Shown here one piece after another: positions 51,235 through 51,915 of a stretch of DNA of 64,000 nucleotides. Location: positions 40,734,001 through 40,798,000 of the forward strand of contig OX597827.1 of assembly GCA_951406725.2 (NCBI GenBank), in the 5' to 3' direction. Source of the DNA: Octopus vulgaris. Taxonomy: Eukaryota. The stretch's first letter is position 1. Every line of letters begins with the position of its first letter. Below the pieces are notes generated by a model, which ran no database searches, was not told the DNA's origin, and was given only the letters and a program-made list of their open reading frames with translations. Both the position numbers and the translations under genes were made by a program.

Positions 51235-51625
51235 GTGGTCTCAAAGTTTGGTACGTGGCCAGAAAGTTCTGGAAAAGTAAGTCGATTATATCGACCCCAG
51301 TGCTCAAATGGTACTTTTTTTATTGGTCCCGAAAGGACGAAAGTTGACCACGGAGGAATGTGACCACGGAGAATGTAAAGAGCCGGAAGAAAAGCGGCTA
51401 AACAGTTTGTCCAGCAATGATAATAATAGTTATTCCTGATTTAAGCGCAAGGCCAGCAATTTTAAGGAGAAAGTTCTATCGGAGGAATTTGAACTCAGAA
51501 TGTAAAGACGGGCGAAAATAATAATATCTGATTTCGGCATAAGACTAGCAATTTTAAGAAGAGGGTTAAATCGATATCGTTGATCTCTGTACTGACTGGT
51601 ACAAGTGAGTTGTATACAGTCGGCT

Positions 51626-51720
51626 AATCTTGGCCTGAAGAGTAGCCGGCGGTATACACCTCGCTTGGATTCTACCACTTCTGAGGTTCCACTCGCTATG
51701 AAACGTATGTAGCCTGGATT
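51626..51720 (+). ncRNA. Type I hammerhead ribozyme, canonical core
   Basis: aatcttggc CTGAAGA gtagc...gctat GAAA cgtat GTA gcctggatt: 9-bp helix I with one mismatch, long helix II, GUA triplet (predicted cut after 51711). Confidence 0.82.
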
Positions 51721-51915
51721 CTTCCTACTCCATTCCGTAACTCATGTATTCTTTTTCGCACACTCAGCAACCCTGGTCGCCTAAAGAAAAATAATCCGCA
51801 TTTTTCCGTCTCAGTACACCACTGTTGTTCCTGATAGTTGTTTTATTTTTAATATTTACAACGGATTGCTCGAAGCTAACTTTCTTCCTACACCTCGATC
51901 CCTGGATCTTACATT

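Follow-up and report, generated by a model that had tools for sequence, protein, structure and literature searches.

A truncated octopus repeat of likely Penelope-like origin carries a type I hammerhead motif with a 58-nucleotide helix II

A short stretch of the Octopus vulgaris genome presents a full set of hammerhead core nucleotides around a long helix II, which raises the question of whether the locus is a working ribozyme with a selected structural module or the residue of a mobile element. The locus lies in a window of 64,000 nt (contig OX597827.1), and all coordinates below are those of the window. A sequence-only reading had taken 51595-51915 for an intact hammerhead of a family unrelated to that of another long-arm motif in the window, and had proposed that the long helix II insertion is a recurrent design, possibly a protein-binding or tertiary-contact module. 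We conclude, with a probability of roughly 0.7, that 51627-51911 is what remains, after 5′ truncation, of the 3′ end of a high-copy repeat terminated by (TA)n; that this repeat, likely a Penelope-like element (PLE; probably of the Hydra clade) or a non-autonomous derivative of one, bears a type I hammerhead with a family-wide 58-nt helix II; and that this copy is predicted to be inactive, with an inverted 25-nt piece lying over its core.

Results

Anatomy of the hammerhead motif

The type I hammerhead motif at 51635 (plus strand) is real. Its C3-A9 core, CUGAAGA (CTGAAGA in the DNA), is read directly from 51635-51641; the 5′ strand of helix I at 51626-51634 pairs with the 3′ strand at 51712-51720, which forms the start of the predicted 3′ cleavage product; and a helix II domain of 58 nt fills 51642-51699. 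The GAAA box (51700-51703), a self-complementary 8-nt helix III (51703-51710) and the cleavage nucleotide A17 at 51711 complete the motif, and cleavage is predicted after this A of the GTA (GUA) triplet. The CTGAAGA/GAAA/GTA core named in the sequence-only reading was thus recovered at these positions, as was its helix II of about 58 nt built on gtagc/gctat and acctc/gaggt: the GTAGC/GCTAT base stem and the ACCTC/GAGGT inner stem belong to the insert's own minimum-energy fold (-14.6 kcal/mol), in which a 5-bp base stem that opens with G10.1·U11.1 is followed by internal loops, a 6-bp stem and a 3-bp apical stem. The 9-bp helix I of that reading proved to have eight of its nine pairs, one of them G·U, with a U·U apposition at 51631/51715 and three uninterrupted pairs beside the core. 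Around the core there are therefore 8/9 pairs in helix I, 5 in helix II and 2-3 in helix III, and the elements follow the order CUGANGA/GAAA/UH. As an intermolecular duplex, helix III has a predicted energy of -6.2 kcal/mol (-7.0 with the letter found in the majority of copies) versus +2.4 for the monomer hairpin.

We weighed the motif against a chance match in AT-rich repeat DNA. A strict descriptor, defined after the motif had been seen, found two motifs on both strands of the window (20402 and 51635) and none in 200 of 200 block-wise dinucleotide shuffles. The facts that speak for chance are that a loose descriptor, with two matches in the window and a shuffle mean of 0.26, had at least one match in 46 of 200 shuffles; that the motif's own fold was no better than that of shuffles (z 0.30); and that no hammerhead was present among the three Rfam matches at E ≤ 10 for 51400-51930. 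The 58-nt insert folded alone was likewise no better than its shuffles (z -1.23), and the 150 Rfam matches listed of 392 for the whole window included no hammerhead. Against chance stand the result of the strict descriptor, the maintenance of the motif across a high-copy family in which the majority of copies have the better palindrome, and two further motifs of the same design in the window, so that we regard a chance origin as hardly credible.

The copy belongs to a high-copy, TA-terminated family and is truncated inside helix I

The family was surveyed by comparing 51500-51916 at 80% likeness with four (X1, X2, X10, and X23) of the 24 listed sequencing runs. A run search had listed 20 matching runs from 12 studies and five organisms, none with half of the query words; no RNA run was among the matches listed, which carries no weight either way. 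Matching contigs numbered 1,188 in X1, 2,324 in X2, and 2,011 in X10, from three organisms, and 945, 1,827, and 1,571 of these, respectively, were less than 95% alike. C>T and G>A together accounted for 42/81, 37/77, and 44/86 of the variable places, respectively, as expected of decaying copies. The summed depth over the hammerhead was about 500-1,000 times that of single listed contigs, a ratio that is not a copy number and that we take as hundreds or more.

Depth rose in a step at about 51629, from 0-84 over 51584-51625 to 1,650-27,000 in the adjoining bin and 1,650-55,000 over the stretch just downstream, with loose ends at 51629; upstream of this point the other copies shared a different sequence (88, 144, and 135 contigs in X1, X2, and X10, respectively, with an agreement of about 0.7). 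At the other end, 28, 37, and 42 contigs of the same runs and 30 RNA reads entered a TA tract at 51911. The step and the upstream sequence at 51629, together with the TA end at 51911, therefore identify the locus as a 5′-truncated copy of a TA-terminated family, with family homology starting at about 51627-51629, inside the 5′ strand of helix I. The family is dispersed, of high copy number and ends in (TA)n at 51911, where the window continues with a (TA)n/(TG)n microsatellite (51912-52110; no strand assigned). Joints to the opposite strand occurred in other contigs too (3 of the 15 joints listed, of 80 in total), with differing inversion points.

The element's 3′ tail (51721-51911, plus strand) was delimited by depth, joints, and loose ends. 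It is conserved to about 51783, variable over 51784-51845 and most abundant over 51846-51911, these last 65 nt being about 2-3 times deeper than the hammerhead. The tail of about 195 bp up to a TA/TG tract that had been described earlier is in agreement with this, at about 200 nt. No significant fold was found in the tail (z -0.16 to 0.29). We considered and rejected a terminal inverted repeat formed by the 3′ end and the sequence found upstream in other copies; the family stops at 51911, and the matching letters are a decayed TA tract.

In about 6% of one cDNA run (X23), 235 reads on both strands matched the family, all of them running into unlike sequence; one read was 95-99% alike and none was higher. 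These look like other family copies inside host transcripts. The reads showed no pile-up of ends, which is weak evidence because the cDNA library was fragmented. A metagenome pattern scan gave one match (L001), a chance 19-mer inside an unrelated sequence without the core, and a viral pattern scan gave none.

Common variants listed for family copies mostly keep pairing

Paralogues, whose absence would have counted against the sequence-only reading, were plentiful, and the 58-nt insert is present throughout the family, some copies having an additional A near 51670. Among the 40 variants listed of 132, which are unphased, none touched the core or the base stem (5 bp) of helix II. Position 51705 is A in 90-93% of the DNA depth, which makes helix III a perfect palindrome. 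Two variants within helix II replace a G·U with a Watson-Crick pair, namely 51663 G>A (30-44%) and 51682 T>C (8-11%), and changes that disrupt a pair at 51661 and 51683 did not exceed 3% in the DNA runs. The change 51648 G>T (53-76%) abolishes a pair available to the window copy, and 51650/51691 is a C·A mismatch in the window copy and in roughly half of the depth. The common helix variants listed mostly keep pairing, but they also fit CpG decay.

An inverted leader is predicted to bury the core of this copy

Immediately upstream of the truncation point, 51602-51626 (minus strand) is an inverted copy, 25 nt long, of 51643-51667 in the 5′ arm of helix II, as detected by self-BLAST. It matches the reverse complement of that arm in 21 of 25 letters, with a maximum of 18 of 25 in 307 control windows. 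The description given in the sequence-only reading did not include this inversion. The leader was covered by one contig in X1 (depth 4.2) and one in X10 (depth 70.8), both of which carry C at 51618, removing one mismatch; the X1 contig, at a depth below 5, may be an error. Because the depth over the leader is only about that of single contigs, we regard the 5′ inversion as specific to this locus.

To the left lies the head fragment of a SINE-like repeat (51517-51602, plus strand), outside the element, which aligns with five other copies in the window up to about 51602; by BLAST, neighbouring fragments match many copies in the window. The inverted piece starts exactly where the SINE-like fragment breaks. 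The "family B SINE" said earlier to break off at the start of the island was accordingly a SINE-like repeat with many copies in the window, with its break at about 51602 rather than 51595; the family label itself is that of the earlier description, and what the alignments confirm is a fragment of a SINE-like multicopy repeat. Reading the leader as a continuation of the SINE was rejected, with about 10 of 23 letters matching versus 21 of 25 for the inverted copy.

Since 51602-51626 is the reverse complement of 51643-51667, the segment 51595-51740 folds into a long hairpin centred on the core (z -4.5; 0/200 shuffles equally good). With the inverted leader included, the active hammerhead fold exceeds the ensemble energy by 19.3 kcal/mol; without the leader the excess is 4.4 kcal/mol (3.9 kcal/mol for the 20402 motif, for comparison), energies that come from secondary-structure prediction and omit tertiary contacts and co-transcriptional folding. 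In its own sequence context the active fold is therefore predicted to be inaccessible: the inverted 25-nt piece folds over the core, and the copy is predicted to be inactive, its core buried by about 19 kcal/mol. The word "intact" in the sequence-only reading does not hold for a copy that is truncated inside helix I, with family homology from 51629, and whose core is predicted to be sequestered.

Might the upstream hairpin be an evolved off-switch, comparable to the blocking sequences of viroid and plant retrozyme circles? It is very stable and centred on the core, and blocking of hammerheads has been described for plant retrozymes, viroids, and some mussel retrozymes (PMC7229834). The family, however, lacks the leader, as the depth step documents; the leader is a plain inverted copy of adjacent sequence that starts exactly at the SINE break; and other copies have different inversion points. 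We consider such a switch very improbable.

A somewhat less remote alternative, though still quite improbable, is that the ribozyme at 51635 is intact and functional, with a long helix II selected as a module for protein binding or tertiary contact. The set of core nucleotides is complete, inserts of 58-60 nt are kept in three motifs of the window that do not align, and the common stem variants at 51663 and 51682 keep pairing while those that break pairs at 51661 and 51683 are rare. On the other side, the inverted leader is predicted to bury the core, this truncated copy has diverged from its family, the 51650/51691 pair is mismatched, the unphased variants are also compatible with CpG decay, no common shape unites the three inserts, and the cDNA reads, from a fragmented library that makes this a weak point, had no pile-up of RNA ends. 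The copy at 51635 is most likely a dead transposon fragment.

Probable assignment to Penelope-like elements

The TA end, the 5′ truncation with inversion, the self-complementary helix III and the G10.1·U11.1 pair all fit a Penelope-like element, and this anatomy makes PLE identity of the 51635 family likely. The family has its hammerhead close to the 3′ end, and helix III is self-complementary; for PLEs of the Hydra clade, (TA)n insertion in almost all families and a hammerhead near the 3′ end have been described (PMC8557442), as have inverted 5′-truncated copies of PLEs (PMC8557442). The Hydra clade itself is a weaker assignment, at about even odds, since (TA)n targeting is also described for Naiads and a microsatellite bias for Neptune (PMC8557442). 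The 51635 insertion has (TA)n on its 3′ side only, its left flank is the SINE fragment, and no target duplication was seen. Regarding a pLTR or partial tandem arrangement, the locus holds a single terminal copy, which is often the case where PLE copies are truncated. The 51635 family was linked to no RT or EN sequence; the copy is truncated at the ribozyme, and an EN profile applied to the window found the remnant at 10455 and nothing else.

Two candidate identities were rejected. The published 3′ end of Hydra-1_Obim does not match, and a Naiad identity, prompted by an "HHR_half_core" note for Naiad_Ovul, was discarded as the 3′ ends of both Naiad_Obim and Naiad_Ovul differ; short motif searches of the published supplement gave no match in a Naiad 3′ end.

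By our count of File S2 (PMC8557442), U stands at position 11.1 in 17 of 25 Hydra families, with G·U in three including Hydra-1_oBim, and in all 25 Hydra rows helix III is self-complementary and 9-10 nt long and the insert does not exceed about 26 nt. The 51635 motif resembles the Hydra-clade elements as described there in its (TA)n 3′ end, the position of the hammerhead near that end, U at 11.1, and the self-complementary helix III; its G·U at 10.1-11.1 is that of Hydra-1_oBim, Penelope-13_HM, and Penelope-17_HM, and an inverted 5′-truncated piece is likewise noted for Penelope-13_HM (PMC8557442). It differs from them in its 58-nt insert, compared with about 26 nt or fewer, in a helix III of 8 instead of 9-10 nt, and in a tail of 200 nt that is longer than in six Hydra consensi (PMC8557442), and no ORF was seen in the 51635 family. 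Relative to the PLE pLTR hammerheads described in PMC4209133, helix II is a multi-stem domain of 58 nt, the 10.1-11.1 pair is G·U in place of a conserved G-C, there is no extra base between positions 9 and 10.1, and helix III is longer than in the minimal forms. The hammerheads of the Selaginella elements PLE-X1_sMoe and PLE-X1_sTam, flagged as non-canonical in File S2, are also PLE-borne and type I and have a helix II of ~53 and ~48 nt, respectively, by our count, but these elements come from a plant, target rDNA, lack EN, and are unrelated in sequence to the 51635 family (PMC8557442).

The role of the hammerhead in Penelope-like elements is described as still open (PMC8557442), and a model of cleavage as a dimer has been put forward for PLE hammerheads (PMC4209133; PMC6765202), with pairing of helix III between two copies described for PLE and for animal type I hammerheads. 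That model fits the 51635 family, whose helix III is predicted to be stable when paired between two molecules but not as a hairpin. We infer the following mechanism for cleavage and insertion. In an active ancestor, the hammerhead would have cut the element transcript after GUA (51711), likely as a dimer in which the 8-nt self-complementary helix III paired between two copies; the RT/endonuclease of the element would have primed reverse transcription at a (TA)n target; and, at the 51635 locus, a halt in synthesis shortly beyond the ribozyme, followed by a strand switch, would have given rise to the inverted piece.

The most serious competitor, although an unlikely one, is a short, non-autonomous retrozyme of the non-LTR type, able to self-cleave and circularise and dependent on a PLE enzyme for its copying, in which case the 51635 copy would be a truncated solo monomer. 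The animal non-LTR retrozymes described in PMC7229834 and bioRxiv 2026.07.22.740005 share with the family a short non-coding unit, a type I hammerhead, hundreds to thousands of copies, and a relation to PLEs; the length class, the hammerhead type, and the palindromic helix III all fit, dispersed monomers have been reported (bioRxiv 2026.07.22.740005), and no ORF was found for the 51635 family. The neighbouring 20402 element, which lacks an evident ORF and carries a terminal direct repeat (59 bp, copies 583 bp apart), points the same way. Yet the copies of the 51635 family stop in TA at 51911 instead of entering a next unit, and the family is TA-terminated and dispersed, with no tandem array or circular junction seen: there are no tandem units at the locus and no "go back" joint among the 15 joints listed of 80. 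None of the 235 cDNA reads, which lie on both strands and run into unlike sequence, was at least 99% alike, a pattern that differs from the abundant discrete RNA reported for retrozymes, although this type of library may miss circles. The canonical loop I/loop II contact is not evident in the 51635 motif, a further difference from the animal retrozymes as described.

Three motifs with a long helix II

A relaxed scan of the window, with one edit allowed in the core and 60 shuffles as control, gave seven matches versus a shuffle mean of 1.05. Three of the seven have a self-complementary helix III of at least 8 nt (shuffle mean 0.25, maximum 2), and all three have long inserts: 60 nt at 20402 (plus strand), 58 nt at 51635 (plus strand), and 60 nt at 10423 (minus strand). 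The remaining matches comprise two short minimal hammerheads with 13-nt inserts and two that are probably due to chance. The recurrence of a long helix II claimed in the sequence-only reading is borne out by these three motifs and by the family-wide insert at 51635, and the like architecture that it had assigned to the 20402 motif and to a relic at 10339 (our 10423) is reflected in their 60-nt inserts. The three motifs do not align meaningfully, and their inserts differ in shape, with no common loop or branch pattern. Absence of shared sequence with 20396-20486 holds outside the core and helix III; within helix III, the 51635 and 20402 motifs share seven of eight letters. Similarly, "unrelated" describes the families at the level of sequence, but all three elements end in (TA)n and have what look like Penelope-like 3′ ends.

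The 10423 relic (window 10250-10625, minus strand) has an extra G in the core, its 60-nt insert, and U·U at 10.1-11.1, and ends about 85 nt later in TA; its helix III is identical to those of Penelope-1_HM and Penelope-18_HMa, two Hydra rows of File S2 (PMC8557442). The relic breaks off immediately 5′ of helix I; about 30 nt beyond the break, a reading frame in inverted orientation begins. This abutting inverted endonuclease remnant (10455-10625) gave 12 matches at E ≤ 0.001 in a full HMMER search (best 1.4e-09) and nothing from Pfam, two word-index homologue searches, or ESM Atlas. Eleven of the 12 matches align as one family, and some show the CxCX5C linker and C-terminal cysteine motifs known from published Hydra endonucleases (PMC8557442); the twelfth, a repeat protein (P0002), was excluded from the alignment as spurious. 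The matches had no GIY-YIG Pfam match, and the seven that were looked up carried no protein name. The EN profile built from them, which is not independent in that the matches were found with this remnant, recovers only the remnant itself in the window, and its assignment to the Hydra-type EN is a by-eye comparison with the published description and consensi. On these sequence grounds one long-arm motif is tied to a putative Hydra-type PLE.

Because the 10423 relic abuts this Hydra-type endonuclease remnant and all three elements end in (TA)n, descent from one long-arm ancestor is a simpler and likelier account of the three motifs than convergence. We take the long helix II to be, most likely, a peripheral stem-loop that has been tolerated and passed down in a single PLE lineage. 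A protein-binding role is possible, but the module idea draws no support from inserts that have no loop or branch pattern in common, nor from the loops of helices I and II, where no canonical contact is evident. We offer as a tentative and, on balance, doubtful proposal that a TA-targeting PLE lineage contains a hammerhead subclass whose ~60-nt helix II has been kept as a functional domain, either as a site where the RT binds or as a ruler or switch in dimer cleavage, across families too diverged to align.

Several observations were made on the other two long-arm elements. The 20402 hammerhead lies between two identical copies, 59 bp each, of the element's 3′ end, followed by TA (window 20119-20775), in a more-than-unit-length arrangement that is pLTR- or retrozyme-like. 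Its helix I extends further than that of the 51635 motif, and helices I and II are predicted to form. As a candidate active ribozyme it is the more promising of the two. The 20402 family is also represented by other truncated pieces, which lie inside TA microsatellites at 62450-62630 and 42538-42599. Directly upstream of the element, at 18700-20120, a LINE-like frame is preserved in its 3′ part, contains tandem and inverted duplications, and has no Pfam match. The 10423 relic and the 51635 copy have the same layout of a cut at helix I plus an inversion. By eye, both of their tails (51877-51911; 10250-10292, minus strand) have a weak pyrimidine-rich motif about 30-45 nt before the TA tract, which resembles, again weakly and by eye, one near the 3′ ends of several published Hydra consensi.

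Discussion

At the level of the family the finding is modest, and its only unusual point is a helix II of constant length, 58-60 nt, across three families. Wide variation of hammerhead stems is general (PMC3088659), and very long peripheral insertions are known, for example in helix I of Clec2 (PMC6155905). In the present case, three non-alignable families within a single 64-kb window have a helix II more than twice as long as the longest in the published Hydra-clade table, and the 51635 motif, the one checked locally, was missed by Rfam. If a long-arm subclass is real, such ribozymes would escape both Rfam and descriptors built for a short helix II; hammerhead counts in these genomes would be underestimated, and claims of PLE clades without hammerheads may rest on underestimates as well. 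A peripheral domain of constant length is a natural candidate site for an element protein or a partner RNA, and the high-copy family supplies enough sequences for a real covariation test. We found no description of the 51635 family, or of a 60-nt arm in Hydra-type elements, in the literature listings searched, and ribozymes are not mentioned in the main text of the O. vulgaris repeat paper; Repbase, Dfam and preprint supplements could contain the family.

Other features of the window

Short repeats with minimal hammerheads occur at 53780 (plus strand), 5824 (minus strand), 13730-13760 (plus strand), 17366-17784, and 52112-52310, and two of them have an altered core position 6 and an ACGT helix III. 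The family at 17366-17784 forms an inverted pair around a TA tract and scores in Rfam, below threshold, as a microRNA-like hairpin. At 52638-52675, CTGAAGA is followed by a short hairpin without a proper GAAA box, possibly a decayed or inverted piece of a hammerhead. An open frame at 56406-56714 (plus strand) presumably resembles the C-terminus of a mariner-type transposase, and a tRNA gene at 41670-41751 (minus strand) scores above the Rfam threshold, at 50.5 bits.
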